Virus record (IMG/VR): IMGVR_UViG_3300017763_004709
Coordinates: 1-64,000 of that record
From: a virus
DNA length: 64,000 nt
Direction: 5' to 3' (one strand)
Shown in pieces: positions 2,683-50,122 of this stretch (position 1 is its first letter; the number at the start of each line of letters is the position of its first letter). The position numbers were made by a program, and so were the translations under genes. Under the pieces are notes generated by a model. That model saw only the letters and a program-made list of their open reading frames with translations, ran no database searches and had not been told where the DNA came from.

Positions 2683-5171
2683 TGGCTATTTCACCACTGA
2701 CCTTATCTGTAGGGCAAAATCAAACATTTCAAAAGCAGTTAACTAAACTAAATACAGATATTCAGTTTAGTCATGTCGCTATTGGTGAAGGGCCTATATA
2801 CAGAATAAATCCAAACGGTGTTCAAGATATTAGAGTAGATGGTAAGTTTATTGATGATTTAATAACTGTTAATAATGAGCCAGATCCTTATGTTTTTCAA
2901 TACAAAAGTACTACTGGTAGTATTAATCAGCAGGTACTCACTCCTTTCAGCGATGAAGTGACAAATAATTTAAGATTCTCCTCTCCTGTGGTTCTTAAGT
3001 CGGGACAGATAAAAGGTGTTGTAACGGGAGTACCTGAAGCTAATGTAATCTTTTTTCCGACTTCTGCTTCTGTAGGAGATAATCCTATAGACACTTTAGT
3101 ATTTAAATTTTCTGTCGAAGAGTTATACAAACAAGATACTAATAATAATTCTACTACAGGGCCACAGAATCAAAGATTAGATTTAAGAATAATAGTACAT
3201 GATAGAAATGAAACATCAAACATAAATAACTATATTGCTTTAGTACAACACTCTTTTACTGAGACTATTACCTTTGATACTATATTAGAAGTACCTATAA
3301 GTATACCTTCAGCTAACCAAAGTGATAATGGGTATAGAGTATCAGTACTAAAAGGTTCAGATGACACTTTGGACTCTGAGATTAGTTCTGAAGTTTCTTT
3401 TTTAGGTTTTAATGAAATATCTCACGAACCTTTCTCGTACCCTAGAACAGCTAGTATAGGCTATGCTTTAAAAGCTACTGGGCTAAGATCAGATGCTGTT
3501 CTAAACTACTCTAGTTTAGTAAAAGGTCTTATAGTTAAAGTCCCTTCTAATTATGATCAACCTATACTAACTAATGGGGAAGTAGACTGGAGAGAAGTAG
3601 AAGTTGATGACATAACTTCTACAGGATACGAACTTCAGTCCTCTCCAGGAATTGTTAGTTTTGATGCTAATCCTATAGTTTATAAAGGTATTTGGGATGG
3701 TACTTTTAAATATGACTGGACTCAGAATCCTGCATGGATTATATATGATTTATTAACTAATACTTCTTATGGATATGGAATACCCGAGTCTTACATAGAT
3801 AAGTATAACTTTTATAAAGCGTCACAAATATTTGATGCAGTAGAGCCTGAAACAGGAAAATTTATAGGTGTTGAAACATACGCTGATGGTAGTATACGTC
3901 ATAAGCCTAGAGGACAATTTACGTCTATACTAGAAGATCAAATAGGTTTATCCTCTTCTAAAGTCATAAAAGAAAGAAGGATAGTATGTGATCTTAGTGT
4001 GACAGACTCTATAGAAACTTATGAGCTTATAAATAAAATAGTTGCGTCTGCCAAAGGTTATTTAGAAATTAGTAATGATAAGATAGGATTAGTTTTAGAC
4101 TATCCTAACTCCCTTCCAGAGCAAATGTTCAACGAAGTTAATTTAACAGCGATCAAATATTCAGGAAATAGAGCAGAAGACTATATAACTGCAGTAGAAG
4201 TATCTTTTAATGACGGGGCTAATAACTATAATAAAGACTTAATAAAGATATACGACCCTGATTCTGATATGCTAGAGGAAAGAGTAGCTAGTATAGATTT
4301 AATAGGCTGCTCTAGAAGAAGTGAAGCTATTAGATTTGCTCAATATATATTAGCTTCTAAAAAATATGTAAAAAGAAAAGTAGAATTTTCTACTTTTGTA
4401 ACTACTTCAGATTTAACCCCTGGTACTATTGTTTCTTTATCAACTCAGACAGTAGGCTCTATATATGGGTATAATGGTATTATTCAAGATAATTCTTCGG
4501 CTAGTAGCGCTACAACAAATGTAAAACTACAACATATTTCTTATCCTCCAATTTCTAATGCTGTATTTGAGAGTAACACGCAACCCCTAGCCTTACGTCA
4601 CTATAGCCAAGAAAGCGGTAAATCTGAGCTTTATATTATAAGCAATACTCAAGTTTCTTATGCCACTACGGGTAATGTACAAGGAGCATTATCTGGTTAT
4701 GACTTTATAGAAGTTAAAGCTTTAAGTAAGTGGGATCCTTTAGTAAACACTTTTGTAGGAATTAGCACTTTCGATCCTTTTAATACTCCTAAAGAAAAAG
4801 ACTTATGGGCCCTTGGAGAAATAGATCCTAATAACTACTACTCTACTAACGCTGCAAAATTATTTAGGATAGATTCTATATCTATGCCCTCTGGTGCAGA
4901 AACTAGTATTTCTGCTAGTGAATATGTACCAAAAGTGTATATAGATAGTGAAAATATTATAAACTTTGAGCCTATACCTATTAAAACAATAGCTAACCCT
5001 CTTATAAAACCTGCCCCTCCTATATTTTCTATTAGCCCTGTGTACACCAATACAGGTGCTGGTAATCCAATTTTAAACTTTTTATTTAACGTACAAAGCA
5101 GTTCTAATATTCAAATAGCTCAAGCTTTTATACCTAGCTCAAGCTTTGTACCTGTACTGGGGGCTATATAA
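2682..5171 (+). CDS. Tail tip/hub protein, gpJ N-terminal part
   Basis: GEGPI, YPRTA, WDGTFK..WTQNPAWIIYDLLTN..YG.G and GC..RSEAIR motifs of gpJ. Confidence 0.85.
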   Translation: MAISPLTLSVGQNQTFQKQLTKLNTDIQFSHVAIGEGPIYRINPNGVQDIRVDGKFIDDLITVNNEPDPYVFQYKSTTGSINQQVLTPFSDEVTNNLRFSSPVVLKSGQIKGVVTGVPEANVIFFPTSASVGDNPIDTLVFKFSVEELYKQDTNNNSTTGPQNQRLDLRIIVHDRNETSNINNYIALVQHSFTETITFDTILEVPISIPSANQSDNGYRVSVLKGSDDTLDSEISSEVSFLGFNEISHEPFSYPRTASIGYALKATGLRSDAVLNYSSLVKGLIVKVPSNYDQPILTNGEVDWREVEVDDITSTGYELQSSPGIVSFDANPIVYKGIWDGTFKYDWTQNPAWIIYDLLTNTSYGYGIPESYIDKYNFYKASQIFDAVEPETGKFIGVETYADGSIRHKPRGQFTSILEDQIGLSSSKVIKERRIVCDLSVTDSIETYELINKIVASAKGYLEISNDKIGLVLDYPNSLPEQMFNEVNLTAIKYSGNRAEDYITAVEVSFNDGANNYNKDLIKIYDPDSDMLEERVASIDLIGCSRRSEAIRFAQYILASKKYVKRKVEFSTFVTTSDLTPGTIVSLSTQTVGSIYGYNGIIQDNSSASSATTNVKLQHISYPPISNAVFESNTQPLALRHYSQESGKSELYIISNTQVSYATTGNVQGALSGYDFIEVKALSKWDPLVNTFVGISTFDPFNTPKEKDLWALGEIDPNNYYSTNAAKLFRIDSISMPSGAETSISASEYVPKVYIDSENIINFEPIPIKTIANPLIKPAPPIFSISPVYTNTGAGNPILNFLFNVQSSSNIQIAQAFIPSSSFVPVLGAI

Positions 5172-11982: not shown

Positions 11983-12648
11983 TTATGTTAATTTATTTAC
12001 TATAGGGAATATAGATGCAATAACATCAGCGCATGCATGTGCTATATCCATGTGTTCTTTTTGTGTGCCGTTAGCACTTCTTAGCTCAATATAGTGTACC
12101 CAGCTACGTATAGACCCATTCATATATAGCTTAGTTTTAGTATTACCCTCTGGCAGTACCGCTCGTGCTTGTTCTTTTGCTATACCATTATCTATAGCCC
12201 ACTCATAAGCCGTAATAGCAGAATGCCAAACATTACGCTGATGTTGTTCCCATACTGTGTGTAAATTTACATCATCAGTAATAACGCTATTCTGTCTATT
12301 TTTAGTATCCTGTAGTCTAGCTTTTCTAGGAACAAAAACATCTCCCATTTCTGAAGGATTTGCGTACCTCTGAGAAAACTCTTGAAAAGCAAAAGACCTG
12401 TGCCTAACTATTTGATGAGCAATATCTCTAGTAGTTTCGATCTCCATTACTACATTTGCCATCTCTAAAGGCGACCAATGTTGATGTTTAATTAAATACT
12501 TAATAAGTCTTTCACTTGTTTCTGTGTTTATCTGTGCCGCAGGGTTTGATACTTTTGCACAAAAAGCAATTAGCTCTTGTAAGTCAGTTAACCCTTCTTC
12601 TTCAAATACTTCTGTAGCTTTACTATAGCTTACTAATTTTACTTTCAT
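11983..12648 (-). CDS. thyX: FAD-dependent thymidylate synthase
   Basis: HWSPLE, RHRSFAFQEFSQRY, AKEQARAVLP. Confidence 0.95.
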   Translation of the reverse strand: MKVKLVSYSKATEVFEEEGLTDLQELIAFCAKVSNPAAQINTETSERLIKYLIKHQHWSPLEMANVVMEIETTRDIAHQIVRHRSFAFQEFSQRYANPSEMGDVFVPRKARLQDTKNRQNSVITDDVNLHTVWEQHQRNVWHSAITAYEWAIDNGIAKEQARAVLPEGNTKTKLYMNGSIRSWVHYIELRSANGTQKEHMDIAHACADVIASIFPIVNKLT

Positions 12649-38791: not shown

Positions 38792-39549
38792 ACGTCATTC
38801 CAATCTACTAAGGGGGTTACACAATTATCTTGTAGGTGTGTAGCAGTTCCAGGTAAAGGACAAACAGCTACATTCTGTCTAAAAGCTTTCCAGGTCCAAG
38901 AGTCGTCTGAAAACAAACCTGCTTGAAGTATAGAAAACTTAAAAGGTAAGAATGTTTTTCCTTTTGCGGCTAAAGTTAAAGTAGCACTGCTAACTGTTTT
39001 TAAGTGACAGTCAGGTCCTACTAATACTTCTACTGTTCTGTCTTTATCAAAATACCTATCTGGATAGTCATAAGGCAAATAAAAACCTTCATACCCTGCT
39101 TTAAAAACATTTTTCATAGTTTTTATGGCAGTTTTAGTATGAAGGTAATCGTCTTCGCATAAATATATTAGCTCTTCAGTATTTGCTTCTGCTATTTCTA
39201 TTAAATTTTCCATTAACGGAATACAAGTATTTATTGTAACAGGATGATACTGAGGATAAGGATGCTCCCCAAATGGGGGTACTTCAGTTCTGTTAGGTAT
39301 ATCTTTTATTTCTAATTTAGTAGGTATAGAGCAGGTTTCTCGCATCCAAGATTTAGTTTCTTCAGTAACTGTATCTGCTAATACTATAATCTTATCGTCC
39401 CAGCCTTCTAAATCTTGTTGTAAAGAAAGCCAACATTTTCTAAAGATTTCATCTTTCTTTTTTCCATTCCATCTAGCTTTATCTTGTGAGCCGTCTGATA
39501 TACTTCCTGGAGACTTATTAGCTTCTGAAGCTCTATATATTATTATCAT
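38776..39549 (-). CDS. GT-A-like protein
   Basis: IYLCEDDYLH, YDYPDRY. Confidence 0.6.
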   Translation of the reverse strand: MIIIYRASEANKSPGSISDGSQDKARWNGKKKDEIFRKCWLSLQQDLEGWDDKIIVLADTVTEETKSWMRETCSIPTKLEIKDIPNRTEVPPFGEHPYPQYHPVTINTCIPLMENLIEIAEANTEELIYLCEDDYLHTKTAIKTMKNVFKAGYEGFYLPYDYPDRYFDKDRTVEVLVGPDCHLKTVSSATLTLAAKGKTFLPFKFSILQAGLFSDDSWTWKAFRQNVAVCPLPGTATHLQDNCVTPLVDWNDVWNQL

Positions 39550-40142
39550 TTTGTTACTTTTTTTCTTGAGAAATTTCTATATTCATCAATAATACTTATA
39601 ATATAAGGATCTAAAGGTTCTATACCTTCTCTTACAAATTTTTCTATTTCGTCTTTTTGATTATTATTAAAGTTACTTTTATAAATAGAAGAACGATATA
39701 CTCCTCTTGTTTTAGAAGGATTACCAAACACTTTAGAGAAAGGTTTTACATCTTTTATTATGGGCGAAAATGTTCCTATAAAAGAATGACTACCTACTGT
39801 AGAGTAATTTTGTATATGAGCATTATACTCTATATAAACATTATTTTGAATAACACTATGAAAACCTAAGTAACAACAACCTGTTATAGTATTATTATTG
39901 CCTATCAAAGTATCACTATTAATAGTAGTACTTGGGCCTATATAATTGCCACTTCCTATAACAGTATTCTCTCTGTAACCAGTTGCGCAGTTAATAACAC
40001 ATGCTGAAAGTATGGTATTGTTTTTACCTAGAGATATTCCATATTTATCATCTTTTACTAAAAACACCACTGAAGGGTCAATAGTATTAGAAGAATCTAT
40101 AGAAAATTCTATAATAGCTTTGGAGGCAGAGTATACTTTCAT
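39546..40142 (-). CDS. LpxA-like hexapeptide-repeat acyltransferase
   Basis: Hexapeptide repeats; KDVKPFSKVFGNP resembles LpxA DVPP...GN. Confidence 0.65.
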   Translation of the reverse strand: MKVYSASKAIIEFSIDSSNTIDPSVVFLVKDDKYGISLGKNNTILSACVINCATGYRENTVIGSGNYIGPSTTINSDTLIGNNNTITGCCYLGFHSVIQNNVYIEYNAHIQNYSTVGSHSFIGTFSPIIKDVKPFSKVFGNPSKTRGVYRSSIYKSNFNNNQKDEIEKFVREGIEPLDPYIISIIDEYRNFSRKKVTK

Positions 40143-40164
40143 AGTGCTATTCAAAATAATGAGT

Positions 40165-40428
40165 GTCACTTTTTCTGTTGCTAGGCAAGTGACCAGCCCC
40201 CTTAATCATGCAGCTAGTGCGTAATTAGATGGTGCAAAGTTATCGTTTGCGTTTGTAGTTTTTGGCTGAATATCGTAGGCCAACACGGTAATCTACTCTC
40301 ATCTCTACACACCTGTCGATCCTAGTTCAGCCCCATAAGAAACACACTTATCTTAATGTGTTTATGGTGGAGCTGTCGGGTACTGCCCCCGAGTCCAGTA
40401 TGTATGTTGAATTGTATCAACGATTACA
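40165..40428 (-). ncRNA. ssrA: Two-piece (circularly permuted) tmRNA
   Basis: Acceptor piece ending GGCAGTACCCGACAGCTCCACCA (3' end 40365), 30-nt spacer, coding piece starting GGGGCTGAA (40334); tag ANDNFAPSNYALAA* at 40250-40206; outer ends approximate. Confidence 0.93.
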
Positions 40429-40461
40429 AAAAAGAGGTTTAAAACGATAGATGTATCGAAG

Positions 40462-40581
40462 TTAGTGACCCCTTAATTCCTTATTTATTTTTTGTCTTGT
40501 TTTCTTATTAGATAGTTGTTTTAGTTTCTTTTTCCATGCCCTAGATAGTGCATGAGGTATTACGCCGTTTTTAGGATTCAT
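40462..40581 (-). CDS. Basic micro-protein (39 aa; not in ORF track)
   Basis: AGGAG RBS; MNPKNGVIPHALSRAWKKKLKQLSNKKTRQKINKELRGH. Confidence 0.6.
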   Translation of the reverse strand: MNPKNGVIPHALSRAWKKKLKQLSNKKTRQKINKELRGH

Positions 40582-40591
40582 TTTTATACTC

Positions 40592-40759
40592 CTATAAAGA
40601 AACTATGCTAGTACTTCCTTTTTCCTTATTAATAATCTTACTATTATACTTTCTAAGCCTATTAAACTGGCTAGGCCGTCTATAGGGTGCAAACTTTAAA
40701 GGATTATTATGGAGTTTTTCTACAGCTTCATTGATAATTTTATCTTTTTCAGTATTCAT
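40592..40759 (-). CDS. Basic micro-protein (55 aa; not in ORF track)
   Basis: MNTEKDKIINEAVEKLHNNPLKFAPYRRPSQFNRLRKY...; downstream of a promoter. Confidence 0.55.
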   Translation of the reverse strand: MNTEKDKIINEAVEKLHNNPLKFAPYRRPSQFNRLRKYNSKIINKEKGSTSIVSL

Positions 40760-40788
40760 GCGTTACTCTCTTTTTTATTATATAGTTA

Positions 40789-40817
40789 ATATTAACACTA
40801 AAAATAGTAGTTAGCAA
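40789..40817 (-). promoter_or_regulatory. Sigma70-type promoter for micro-ORFs/tmRNA/GT cluster
   Basis: TTGCTA-N17-TAATAT with extended TG. Confidence 0.65.
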
Positions 40818-40830
40818 CAAAAATTTAAAT

Positions 40831-41097
40831 TTAAGATTTGGAGTTTGGTGTATTTTTTTGCTTCTTTGTGTAGCCTGCTTTTCTTTCTAACTTTTGCATA
40901 AGAGCTTGTCTTTTAGCTTCTGCTTTTCTGTACCTAGCTTTACCAGCTTTTTTAGCTTCTCTAAGTTTTTCAGATTTAGAAACATAGTAACTTTGTCTTT
41001 TAGCATCTGTATAGAACCCATCGGCATTTAGTTTTCTCATCATAATTTTATATGCTTTAGAGACATCATTATTATATTTTTTTATACTTATTTTCAT
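40831..41097 (-). CDS. rpsU: Ribosomal protein bS21
   Basis: NNDVSKAYKIMMRKLNADG...KRQSYYVSKSEKLR matches the bS21 pattern; TAATG-coupled start 41097. Confidence 0.85.
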   Translation of the reverse strand: MKISIKKYNNDVSKAYKIMMRKLNADGFYTDAKRQSYYVSKSEKLREAKKAGKARYRKAEAKRQALMQKLERKAGYTKKQKNTPNSKS

Positions 41098-41405
41098 TAA
41101 TTTACCTTTATATAGTTTTGTATCCAAGAAGATAAGTGTCCTGCAGAATATTTACCTATAAGTTTGGATATAACTCCATTATTTTTAGTTACCACAAACA
41201 TAGGTGTTGTAATATTTTTTGAGAGGTCTGCACTGTTTACACTTTCTGTATTAATTCCTAGATCTTGCAGGGTGAGCAGTTCTCGTTGCACATAGGTTTT
41301 ATTAAATTTGTTAAAATATCCTGTAACCTTCTTCAACTTATTTCTCCTATTAGTCTGACACTTTTTAAGAGTAGACATATTTTGATTTAATTTTATTCTT
41401 GCCAT
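41097..41405 (-). CDS. Hypothetical protein (possible degenerate thioredoxin fold)
   Basis: NITTPMFVV.KN....KLIG; no CxxC. Confidence 0.45.
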   Translation of the reverse strand: MARIKLNQNMSTLKKCQTNRRNKLKKVTGYFNKFNKTYVQRELLTLQDLGINTESVNSADLSKNITTPMFVVTKNNGVISKLIGKYSAGHLSSWIQNYIKVN

Positions 41406-41456
41406 TTATAATTTTTCATGCTAATATTAATTTATAACAACAGGTAAGCAAATAAT

Positions 41457-41696
41457 ATGAAAGACTATCAGAATGAATTGAGCCGTTGTCTATCCGTAGT
41501 AAAGTGGAATCCTAATGAAGCACTCTCTGAGATGAACCTCTTAAGAGACGAAGCATTAAGTTCTCCTTTAAAAGAAAAACTTTGGAAGCGTAAGGCTCGT
41601 GAAATAAATAACTTTTTAGACTCTTTAGAAAACACACGTTACTATAAAGAATCTGAATTCTGGAAAAACTCAAAACCAAGTAGGTTAATAATATAA
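41457..41696 (+). CDS. Hypothetical protein
   Basis: First ORF of the divergent block. Confidence 0.6.
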   Translation: MKDYQNELSRCLSVVKWNPNEALSEMNLLRDEALSSPLKEKLWKRKAREINNFLDSLENTRYYKESEFWKNSKPSRLII

Positions 41697-42031
41697 TGAA
41701 TAAGTATCAACAAGACTTTAACTCTTTGAAAACACTACTAGCTAACTCTTTTAACTCTGTAGAAGATGTTGTAAAGTTAGTTAAACCACTTTTATTAAAG
41801 ATGAATAATCCAACCTTTTATAAAAAGTATTTATACACTAAGCCCGAAGAGGCTTACGGGGGAGTAGGGAGTTATTCCAACAATATGTTTACCATATTTA
41901 CTAACGAGTGTATCAAAATTATTAATGAATGTCAAGACTTAAATGAAATGCTCAGGAAGCTACAAGTAGAATACTCATGGACAAATCGACACTCCGAGCC
42001 CTACTGGTTTAAAAATACAAAAAATACTTAG
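41696..42031 (+). CDS. Hypothetical protein
   Basis: TAATG-coupled. Confidence 0.6.
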   Translation: MNKYQQDFNSLKTLLANSFNSVEDVVKLVKPLLLKMNNPTFYKKYLYTKPEEAYGGVGSYSNNMFTIFTNECIKIINECQDLNEMLRKLQVEYSWTNRHSEPYWFKNTKNT

Positions 42032-42102: not shown

Positions 42103-42576
42103 ATGATAAAATCAATAACTATTTTTTTATTATTACTTAGTGCAAAGACAGTGCTGGCAGATACGAGTAAAGAAATAGAGTGCTTAGCAAAGAATATTTA
42201 TTTTGAAGCACGCAATCAGTCAGTAAGAGGTCAAATAGCTGTAGGAAACGTAACCATAAATAGGGTAAAAGATAGTAGATTTCCAAACTCAGTATGTAAG
42301 GTCGTAACTCAAGCCAAAAAAGACAAAAATAATAATATAATACTTAACAAATGCCAATTTAGCTGGTATTGTGATGGAATAAAAGATACTATGTTAAATA
42401 AAGAGGTAAAAGAATTTTCTTTTAAACTTGCTAAAGCGTTAATTTTAGGGCAAATATCAGACGTAACACACAACTCAACGCACTATCATAGTAAAAAAGT
42501 CAAACCTTATTGGAGTAGCCATCTATCAAAAACGGTTACTATAGAGGATCACCATTTTTATAGGTGGGAAAAATAA
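42103..42576 (+). CDS. SleB/Hydrolase_2 cell wall hydrolase with signal peptide
   Basis: CLAKNIYFEARNQ, VTINRV, CQFSWYCDG, HHFY. Confidence 0.92.
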   Translation: MIKSITIFLLLLSAKTVLADTSKEIECLAKNIYFEARNQSVRGQIAVGNVTINRVKDSRFPNSVCKVVTQAKKDKNNNIILNKCQFSWYCDGIKDTMLNKEVKEFSFKLAKALILGQISDVTHNSTHYHSKKVKPYWSSHLSKTVTIEDHHFYRWEK

Positions 42577-42933: not shown

Positions 42934-43274
42934 CTAAAGAAAAAGAATTATTAAAATATCTATTATCTAGTCCTCCTATGGATGTTTACAATGAGGATAA
43001 CATGGATATTCAAGAAAGTAATTTAGAGTTAGTAGAGCCCAGACCTATTAAAGCTAACGAAGAAGAACTAGAATCTAGAGAAATAGGTTCGGCTAACTTA
43101 TTTTTGGCTTCTGCATTTTTGAGCACTATAAACGACATAGATTTACCGGCTAAATCAGACGAAGACGTAACTAAAGCTCAAAAACTATGGCAACAATGGA
43201 TGACAGAGCTTAAAGAAGATAACTTCTTACGAGAAAAACCTAATACGTTACGAGAAAGTTTTAAAATTGTTTAA
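42930..43274 (+). CDS. Hypothetical protein
   Basis: ATGA-coupled ORF. Confidence 0.6.
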   Translation: MTKEKELLKYLLSSPPMDVYNEDNMDIQESNLELVEPRPIKANEEELESREIGSANLFLASAFLSTINDIDLPAKSDEDVTKAQKLWQQWMTELKEDNFLREKPNTLRESFKIV

Positions 43275-43953
43275 CTATGAAAAGTGTTTAGAAGCGTATA
43301 ACATAGATAGAGAGTCTGGAAGAGTATACAAAACTCCCGATGGCGAGTACCCTAGTATAACTACTATTTTAGGAGCGACTTCGAATAATTCTTTTTTACA
43401 TAAGTGGAGAGAAAGAGTAGGCGAAGAAGAAGCTAATAGAATATCTAAAGAAGCTACTGATAGAGGTACTGCAGTACACGACTATATAGAGCAGTACTAC
43501 TTACAAGAAGATAGAGTTTTTAGCGACTGGTTTGTATCTTCTGGACTTTCCAAAGAGCCAAGAAAAATTAAACAACCTGCTAGAGACATTATAAAAGAAT
43601 GTGATAGAAATAACTTTACTCCCTATGCTCAAGAAATACCTTTATGGCATCCCAAACTAAAATTTGCCGGAAGAGTAGATGGCATTGGGTTATGGAATGG
43701 TGTACTATCTATAATAGATTTTAAAACTTCAAAAAAGAAAAAATACACCTCTCAAATAAAAAACTACTATATACAAGCTACTGCATATGCTGTTGCCCAT
43801 AATTATTTATTTAATACTGCTATAAATAATTTTTCAATAGTTATTGGAGTAGACGAAAAAGAATCTCAATGTTTTACAGGTAAAGTAGTAAATTTTATAC
43901 CTGAGCTTAAATATAGGGTTAGATCTTTTTATAGTCAACAGAAAGGAAGTTAA
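43267..43953 (+). CDS. PD-(D/E)xK exonuclease
   Basis: YPSITTIL, RGTAVH, AGRVD...IIDFKT, QATAY. Confidence 0.88.
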   Translation: MFNYEKCLEAYNIDRESGRVYKTPDGEYPSITTILGATSNNSFLHKWRERVGEEEANRISKEATDRGTAVHDYIEQYYLQEDRVFSDWFVSSGLSKEPRKIKQPARDIIKECDRNNFTPYAQEIPLWHPKLKFAGRVDGIGLWNGVLSIIDFKTSKKKKYTSQIKNYYIQATAYAVAHNYLFNTAINNFSIVIGVDEKESQCFTGKVVNFIPELKYRVRSFYSQQKGS

Positions 43954-48785: not shown

Positions 48786-49853
48786 ATGGAATATTTCAAT
48801 AAAACTAGTGAAGACTGGCGTATTTCTCAATGCTGTCAGTTCCATGATAAAGCAAAAGCTAAATCTTACAATTTTGGAACTACTACTAAAACTTATGCTC
48901 TAAAAGAGGGCGGAAAAGAAAGAGTGCAACAAAAAGCTTTACATAATTGTAATCAGCTTTTATCTGTGCTAAAAAATCATTTCCCTACACAACCTAAAAA
49001 TCTAAGAGCTTGGAGAATATCTTCAGAGCTTTTTCCTTGCTACACTTTAGATTTTACTAAGCCTTGGTACGAAGAAATTTGGGATGACATTTGTGCTATA
49101 CTAGAAGAATGCGGTAGACTAGCAAAAAAACATGAAGTAAGACTCAGTGTGCATCCTGGACAGTATACTGTTCTAGCGTCTAACAAAGCTGAGGTAGTAG
49201 AAAACTCTATTAAAGATTTAGAGTATCATGCTCTATATGGTAGTTTGATGGGATTACCCGCTAAAGACTTTGTAATGAATATTCATCTTCAGGGTCTATA
49301 TGGAGGAAAGCACGAAGACGGCATAAAGCGTTTTGCTACTAATTTTCATTACCTATCTGACTACGCCCAACAGTGTCTTACTGTAGAAAATGAAGATAAA
49401 CCTAATGGTTATGATATAAGACATACTATAGAGCTATCTAAGCGTGTACCTATTCGCTGTTGTTTAGACACTCACCATTATGCATGCCATAGAATGAGAG
49501 AGTCGGAAAAAGTTGTACTAGAAGGCAAAACTGTTAATAGGAAGATTAGGGATGTAGAACATATTACTTATACCCATGAGTACTTTGCAGAGGCTGTAGT
49601 ATCTTGGAAAGGGGTTAGACCTTTATTTCACGTGTCTCAATCTTTCCCTCCAGAAAATTCTGCCTATTGGATGAAGCCTAATGCTCACTCAGAAGTATTC
49701 TGGGATGAAGAACTTATGGCAAATCATGTGCCTATGTTACAGTATGCAGACTTTGATATAGAAGCTAAACATAAAGAAGTAGCCGTACTAGGTTTTTACA
49801 ATTTTATAAAAGAAGAAGAAGAGCTAGCAGGAGAGCCCTTAGTAGCAATATGA
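48786..49853 (+). CDS. uvsE: UV damage endonuclease UvdE/UvsE
   Basis: RISSELFP, RLSVHPGQYTVL, VENED, LDTHH, DIEAKHKE. Confidence 0.92.
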   Translation: MEYFNKTSEDWRISQCCQFHDKAKAKSYNFGTTTKTYALKEGGKERVQQKALHNCNQLLSVLKNHFPTQPKNLRAWRISSELFPCYTLDFTKPWYEEIWDDICAILEECGRLAKKHEVRLSVHPGQYTVLASNKAEVVENSIKDLEYHALYGSLMGLPAKDFVMNIHLQGLYGGKHEDGIKRFATNFHYLSDYAQQCLTVENEDKPNGYDIRHTIELSKRVPIRCCLDTHHYACHRMRESEKVVLEGKTVNRKIRDVEHITYTHEYFAEAVVSWKGVRPLFHVSQSFPPENSAYWMKPNAHSEVFWDEELMANHVPMLQYADFDIEAKHKEVAVLGFYNFIKEEEELAGEPLVAI

Positions 49854-50122
49854 TAGATTATAAATTTAATGAAGATCAATATATAAAAGAATTTAAAAAG
49901 TATGTTGATTCCACTTATAACCAACACTATTCTAATAATAAATTTCAATCTACTGAAGTAATTATTGATAGAGGTCATGGAACAGGTTTCTGTATGGGAA
50001 GTATAGATAAATACTCTAATAGGTATGGTAAGAAGGGCACTGTAGAAGATGCTCGTAAAGATTTAATGAAGATATTACACTATACTCTACTTCAGCTGTA
50101 TATACACGATAGTAACTATTAG
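49850..50122 (+). CDS. DUF3310-like protein
   Basis: TYNQHY, GFCMG..KY..RYGKK...DLMK..HY. Confidence 0.7.
   Translation: MIDYKFNEDQYIKEFKKYVDSTYNQHYSNNKFQSTEVIIDRGHGTGFCMGSIDKYSNRYGKKGTVEDARKDLMKILHYTLLQLYIHDSNY

Follow-up and report, generated by a model that had tools for sequence, protein, structure and literature searches.

The tmRNA locus and its neighborhood

A circularly permuted, two-piece tmRNA gene lies on the minus strand of the window (the whole 64,000-nucleotide stretch of DNA analyzed here), and all of the elements that the preliminary description had assigned to such a phage-encoded gene are present, correct to the base: an acceptor piece with the T-loop GGCAGUA that ends at 40365, a 30-nt hairpin-forming spacer (40364-40335), a coding piece that starts at 40334 with the letters GGGGCUGAA, the tag peptide, and a hairpin 3' of the tag (40193-40165). 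The computational checks that it had named were run and agree: ARAGORN calls a permuted tmRNA (tmRNA*) spanning 40115-40458 with the identical tag, ANDNFAPSNYALAA, and Rfam returns 118.5 bits for RF01849 (alpha_tmRNA; E 1.1e-31), far above the gathering score of 50, and 127 bits for RF04321 (tmRNA_permuted; gathering score 47, E 1.8e-24). The order is that of a permuted gene, in which the half with the T-arm and CCA (CCA end 40365) stands upstream of the half starting with GGGG (GGGG start 40334), with the spacer between them. Agreement of this kind goes far past what chance would give. The features of the gene are as follows.

40365..40427, minus strand: acceptor piece, about 63 nt (sequence, ARAGORN, Rfam, and covariation)
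40427-40423, minus strand: P2 3'-side strand GUAAU, which together with AUACAU-A-CUG lies within the acceptor piece
40392-40376, minus strand: T-arm UCGGG / GGCAGUA / CCCGA, a 5-bp stem with an alpha-type GGCRGUA loop
40375-40369, minus strand: acceptor 3' strand CAGCUCC (sequence)
40368, minus strand: discriminator A (sequence)
40367-40365, minus strand: encoded CCA (sequence)
40335..40364, minus strand: intervening spacer, 30 nt, expected to be removed from the precursor
40363-40357 with 40346-40340, minus strand: spacer base stem, 7 bp, AAACACA with UGUGUUU, stacking on the acceptor stem
40153..40334, minus strand: coding piece, about 182 nt, with a predicted 3' end at 40153
40334-40328, minus strand: acceptor 5' strand GGGGCUG, pairing with CAGCUCC
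40262..40287, minus strand: pseudoknot PK1 (comparative structure)
40287-40284 with 40277-40274, minus strand: PK1 stem 1, CGUG with UACG
40283-40279 with 40266-40262, minus strand: PK1 stem 2, UUGGC with GCCAA
40206..40250, minus strand: tag reading frame (ARAGORN and Rfam)
40165..40193, minus strand: terminal hairpin, 7 bp, GUCACUU...AAGUGAC (aligned to the alpha_tmRNA 3' consensus)

The 7-bp acceptor stem, with its discriminator A, has at its third pair the wobble G40332.U40371 (G3.U70), the alanine (AlaRS) identity element. Following the acceptor 5' strand, the coding piece contains the P2 5'-side strands, PK1, the tag frame, the terminal hairpin, and a U-tract; the tag frame opens at the resume codon GCA (40250-40248), runs for 14 codons to 40209, and is closed by TGA (40208-40206), while the loop of the terminal hairpin holds the alpha-tmRNA motif GCAACAGAA and is followed by ACUCAUUAUUUU to 40153. 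There are two copies of the heptamer GGGGCUG, one opening the coding piece (40328-40334) and the other just past the tag stop (40191-40200), and in the MFE fold of the single sequence the acceptor 3' strand pairs with the second copy. We set this fold aside, the comparative fold alone yielding the canonical acceptor stem; pairing with the second copy may represent an alternative conformation of the precursor, or just helix 5. A candidate helix around the tag, CAGCC/GGCUG, overlaps PK1 stem 2.

The window belongs to a 75,828-bp IMG/VR virus record of an uncultured marine phage, about 67% complete by CheckV. The tmRNA gene is located in the middle of the record rather than at an end, and the coding strand switches a short way to its right, near 41.4-41.7 kb. 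Open reading frames of the record match a lambda-J-like central tail fiber, minor tail proteins, a family A DNA polymerase (nearest to those of T5-like phages, at 38-40% identity), ribonucleotide reductase, an SbcC-like nuclease, DnaB-like and other helicases, an NAD-dependent ligase, and a lysin, and no integrase domain was found in the 75.8 kb; the carrier thus combines a T5-like replication module with a tail of siphovirus type. A nucleotide search with positions 39000-42000 gave no match among 50,697 phage records. At least 0.90 of the words sampled from the stretch turn up in each of 14 public runs, which derive from no fewer than 10 studies and are nearly all seawater or viral metagenomes. 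The genes and signals next to the tmRNA are these.

40831..41127, minus strand: bS21 ribosomal protein gene (Pfam PF01165, 30.1 bits, cut-off 27)
40817-40789, minus strand: candidate sigma-70-type promoter TTGCTA-17-TAATAT, proposed from its resemblance to the consensus
40592-40759, minus strand: Lys/Arg-rich micro-ORF of 55 aa, between bS21 and the tmRNA
40462-40581, minus strand: Lys/Arg-rich micro-ORF of 39 aa, between bS21 and the tmRNA
39546..40142, minus strand: hexapeptide-repeat (LbH) acyltransferase, the next gene downstream (PF00132, E 1.5e-11)

The bS21 gene is co-oriented with the tmRNA about 370 nt upstream of it, is conserved in 8 of 8 IMG/VR relatives, and recurs in four more remote loci (L024, L107, L043, and L035), where it precedes the tmRNA by 0.4-2 kb. 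The two micro-ORFs are conserved, the 39-aa one in relatives, and neither has a match in Pfam. The candidate promoter, which has a TG upstream of the -10 hexamer and scores below the threshold of the promoter scan, could drive the micro-ORFs together with the tmRNA. On the other side, the acyltransferase is the first gene of a glycan cluster, and most likely starts at ATG 40142 rather than at GTG 40169, which would overlap the tmRNA.

Homologs of four other genes in the window (42103-42576, 43267-43953, 11983-12648, and 49850-50122) recur beside tmRNAs in viral loci that are otherwise unrelated, dozens of them in all. Their counterparts in the annotation of phage Mosig are a GH108-type lysin, a PD-(D/E)XK protein, and ThyX, the fourth being a 90-aa ORF; the recurrence of these neighbors suggests a module shared between T4-like pelagimyophages and the T5-like phage described here.

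Conservation and covariation among related phages

Thirteen collinear relatives keep the tmRNA gene at the matching place, 8 of them in IMG/VR (L001-L006, L106, and L114) and 5 in metagenome contigs (L132-L136, the parent contigs of L134 and L135 being 100.9 and 90.6 kb long). In comparisons of these sequences, i) the fold that RNAalifold derives from 7 relatives, given no hints, contains the acceptor stem, the T-arm, P2, and the base stem of the spacer, with 12 compensatory pairs, and all 7 of the acceptor pairs are invariant across these relatives, including the G.U at the third pair; ii) in a curated structure that includes PK1, 97.9% of cells are paired (33-46% in slid controls), 9 pairs have changed on both sides, and the covariation score of 0.214 compares with 0.095 for shuffles, none of 500 shuffles reaching it; iii) within this structure 3 of the 5 T-stem pairs have changes on both sides, and the versions found among near-identical phages (UCGGG/CCCGA, CUGGG/CCCAG, UGCGG/CCGCA, and CGCGG/CCGCG) are all fully complementary; iv) in P2, helix 1 is 100% and helix 2 is 92% paired, and 3 pairs have changed in both strands, the two stems of PK1 (helices 6 and 7) are both 100% paired with few variable positions, one compensatory change in PK1 stem 2 being seen in L006 (UUGAC with GUCAA), and the terminal hairpin (helix 8) is 95.7% paired; and v) the tag peptide is identical in the 13 relatives, the frame in L006 having three synonymous changes and a TAA stop instead of TGA. 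A long-range helix proposed by RNAalifold (271-281 with 412-423) was left out of the curated structure, several of its cells being broken in L006.

The spacer behaves differently from the rest of the gene. At the same place where the phage described here has 30 nt, relatives have 74, 80, 94, or 111 nt; the base stem is kept through compensatory changes, and the remainder of the spacer is hypervariable. Taken together, the compensatory changes, the confinement of tag changes to synonymous ones, and the variable spacer indicate that the RNA is functional and not a relic. The relatives, with spacers of 30-111 nt, amount to a natural experiment on which parts of the precursor are dispensable. For the relative with the 111-nt spacer (L003) ARAGORN makes no call, and Rfam scores 117.9 bits.

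The spacers of L001-L006 (at about 3740-3860) differ in length among phages that are otherwise near-identical. Those of L001 and L002 contain a 12-bp inverted repeat, and in that of L003 what looks, by eye, like a short hydrophobic ORF runs into the coding piece; both could be due to chance, or could be small inserted elements.

Tag distribution, host factors, and possible transcripts

The exact tag ANDNFAPSNYALAA has no match among the species-representative bacterial genomes scanned, and in metagenomes it is found in this phage lineage only. Relaxing the tag to ANDNFAPxxYALAA yields a single contig among 185,579 bacterial species genomes, NYWG01000240.1 (L127), a 6,096-bp contig of a 'Verrucomicrobiales' MAG. 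This contig carries an alpha-type permuted tmRNA with the geometry of that in phage Melnitz (453 nt, tag at 318-362), along with homologs of phage genes in the window, and is probably, from its content, a phage contig mis-binned into the MAG; we accordingly rejected it as a pointer to the host. The relaxed tag family is abundant in viral contigs, and a 17-mer encoding ANDNFA matched at least 120 contigs in IMG/VR.

The preliminary description had reported no smpB in the window, and this extends to the whole 75.8-kb record, from which the SmpB domain (PF01668) is absent, as it is from five related records that are 11-73% complete. Phage tmRNAs depend on the host, and an absent smpB is what one would expect of them. 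Its suggestion that host SmpB would be used is a reasonable one given the absence of smpB from these six records; reliance of the phage tmRNA on host SmpB is likely yet unproven, because all of the searched records are incomplete. Its appeal to alphaproteobacterial hallmarks stands for the RNA itself, whose layout and GGCRGUA loop match the alpha type, but not as a safe indication of an alphaproteobacterial host: an alpha-type gene does not settle the host, because Melnitz carries one yet infects a gammaproteobacterium (PMC9004378).

A weak hint of expression of the locus comes from metatranscriptome X18, in which a 151-nt contig with a depth of about 100 matches 40153-40303 exactly and stops at the final U downstream of the terminal hairpin; the match is to an assembled contig from one study, which can neither show RNA ends nor exclude DNA carry-over. 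A 1,648-nt contig of X18 comes from a relative whose spacer is longer; it could be precursor RNA or DNA. Three other RNA runs (X15-X17) cover part of the downstream ORF (39865-40136), the piece in X15 being flanked by adapter sequence.

Proposed function and comparison with known systems

We think it highly probable that this virulent-looking marine tailed phage carries a working ssrA gene, permuted in the alphaproteobacterial manner. tmRNA frees stalled ribosomes, and an ALAA end is a classic degradation signal for ClpXP-type proteases. The two-piece tmRNA of Caulobacter, reportedly described by Keiler, Shapiro and Williams in 2000, serves as the model for processing. In the mechanism we propose, leftward transcription would take in the gene together with bS21 and the two small basic ORFs, or directly after them; the precursor folds, as sequence and covariation show, with CAGCUCC-ACCA and GGGGCUG forming the 7-bp acceptor stem stacked on the T-arm, and with P2 joining the acceptor and coding halves; host tRNA-processing enzymes would then excise the 30-nt spacer, by analogy with Caulobacter, to leave pieces of about 63 and 182 nt. 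The CCA end would be alanylated by host AlaRS and the RNA brought to stalled ribosomes by host SmpB, whereupon translation would resume at GCA 40250 and add ANDNFAPSNYALAA, presumably marking the product for degradation of the ClpXP type; compatibility with the SmpB, AlaRS, and proteases of the host is assumed throughout. The purpose is the least certain part of this scheme. We favor maintenance of rescue, the most likely benefit being that ribosome rescue would be kept up during infection as host transcription and the supply of host tmRNA fail and broken messages abound.

The near-absence of the tag family from bacterial genomes suggests a tmRNA lineage resident in phages. It is possible, although we hold it as a tentative and rather doubtful extension, that the gene belongs to such a long-term lineage and is not a recent capture from a host; the tmRNA may then move among unrelated marine backbones (T4-like myophages and a T5-like siphophage) with a small group of neighbor genes, the tmRNA, bS21, and two basic micro-ORFs may form a phage translation island, and the micro-ORFs and bS21 might act with the tmRNA, for instance as ribosome-rescue helpers specific to the phage.

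Strict conservation of the tag at the peptide level, and the restriction of ANDNFAPxxYALAA among the 185,579 bacterial species genomes to one probably phage-derived contig, could also be accommodated by a real tmRNA in an offensive role, tagging host or incomplete proteins for amino-acid recycling, or swapping the host tag for a phage-specific one. We regard this as quite unlikely, since tmRNA acts, to our knowledge, only on stalled ribosomes and we know of no means by which it could choose host proteins; the standard ANDN start and ALAA end are retained, suggesting an ordinary fate for the tagged protein; and nothing here separates such a role from plain maintenance of rescue. Buchholz et al. 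have proposed an offensive role for Melnitz (PMC9004378).

Very improbable, in our judgment, is a decoy RNA that titrates host SmpB or ribosomes and so blocks host trans-translation, in the manner of the tRNA-like-domain-only (TLD-only) molecule of mycobacteriophage DS6A, an RNA that inhibits tmRNA (PMC4131195) and is the precedent for such a reading; the lack of smpB in the phage records searched would suit a decoy, but a decoy would not need PK1, a resume codon, or a complete tag that stays in frame and varies at synonymous sites alone, all of which have been kept. Least credible is a gene that does not work, be it host DNA picked up where a phage attaches at ssrA, a chimeric assembly, or the remains of a decaying gene: ssrA is a common site of prophage integration and phages often carry ssrA fragments (PMC9004378, PMC4131195), but this reading is largely refuted by a gene that is full length, in mid-genome, unaccompanied by an integrase in the 75.8-kb record, collinear in 13 independent contigs with compensatory evolution, well covered in the 14 runs mentioned above, and equipped with an exact tag found in no scanned bacterial genome.

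The remark in the preliminary description that phage tmRNAs are mostly one-piece fits the 2014 census (PMC4131195) but not the current one, and the rarity it implied was overstated. Buchholz et al. (2022) found tmRNA genes in 402 of 18,146 phage genomes, and among 133 unique structures 53 are two-piece, 50 of these 53 coming from marine or aquatic phages, in which the permuted form is the usual one (PMC9004378). Permuted tmRNAs in their Table S1 include those of HTVC008M, Mosig, cyanomyophages, the Caulobacter phiCbK group, Sphingobium phage Lacusarx, and Roseobacter phage DSS3_MAL1 (PMC9004378). Among the viral loci that we fetched, ARAGORN reports 63 permuted tmRNAs; a motif scan finds at least 79 viral loci with one, the T-stem being 5/5 complementary in all 79 and spacer lengths lying between 8 and 247 nt. 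In a BLAST search of isolate phages the gene has hits in Mosig, Melnitz, DSS3P8, V10, RcXuper, and Phosso, and Rfam confirmed full permuted tmRNAs in those of them that were fetched.

Phage two-piece tmRNAs are thus already well documented; the gene described here is one more example, and leaves the understanding of trans-translation and of phage biology unchanged. What it adds to the marine phages with a ribosome-rescue RNA of their own is a well-supported case with clean comparative evidence, and it places the alpha-type two-piece tmRNA also in a T5-like siphophage lineage common in seawater metagenomes, beyond the T4-like pelagimyophages. Slightly new are a tag exclusive to the lineage, the lack of an adjoining riboswitch-type element, and the bS21 gene and micro-ORFs upstream.

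The nearest comparison is with Melnitz (a phage of Methylophilales) and the Pelagibacter phages Mosig and HTVC008M, which are likewise marine, carry an alpha-type permuted tmRNA, and have no smpB (PMC9004378). RF04321 scores are similar (113 bits for Melnitz, 94 for Mosig, and 127 for the phage described here), the Melnitz tag ANDNYVPVDYALAA has the same 14-residue build, and neighborhoods of the Mosig/Melnitz type share with this phage the homologs of the GH108-type lysin, the PD-(D/E)XK protein, and ThyX. The three are T4-like myophages (Kyanoviridae), a backbone that the phage described here does not share: its family A polymerase is T5-like and its tail is of the lambda-J type. Melnitz has a glutamine riboswitch (RF01739) directly after ssrA (L130, 1856-1904, 52.8 bits), whereas none was found around the gene described here even at E values up to 5, nor did Rfam give a weak match to any other meaningful family around it; such riboswitches beside phage ssrA genes are common, not defining (PMC9004378). 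The spacer is 30 nt here and 142 nt in Melnitz, and the bS21 gene and two micro-ORFs upstream are a further difference.

A second group, comprising large siphophages of Alphaproteobacteria, also has the alpha-type two-piece tmRNA, as in the Caulobacter phiCbK group, Lacusarx, and the Roseobacter phages DSS3_MAL1 and DSS3P8 (PMC9004378). The DSS3P8 tmRNA scores 109 bits with RF01849 and has a T-arm 92% identical to that of the phage described here over 39 nt, but its tag, ANINNAPMEMAIAA, differs; siphophages of the phiCbK, Lacusarx, and DSS3 types have larger genomes (146-322 kb) and GC-rich hosts. In DSS3P8 (L129, 845-1278) the tmRNA is unannotated and adjoins, on its upstream side, a GOLLD RNA (150.7 bits) that is also unannotated; and in the probably mis-binned 'Verrucomicrobiales' contig a manA RNA (2536-2743, 63.2 bits) is found downstream of the tmRNA. 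The jumbo phage Phosso of Sinorhizobium (469 kb) carries an alpha-type permuted tmRNA that is not annotated (L131, 1451-2140, 108-113 bits); it spans about 690 nt, with a very long intervening segment, and receives no call from ARAGORN.

Compared with the cellular two-piece tmRNA of Alphaproteobacteria (Caulobacter; RF01849), the gene described here is phage-borne, lacks a linked smpB, has an exact tag that occurs in no species-representative bacterial genome, and is more compact, with about 40 model positions missing after the tag; yet the two have in common the gene order, the GGCRGUA T-loop, G3.U70, P2, PK1, an ANDN...AA tag, and the 3' motif GCAACAGAA.
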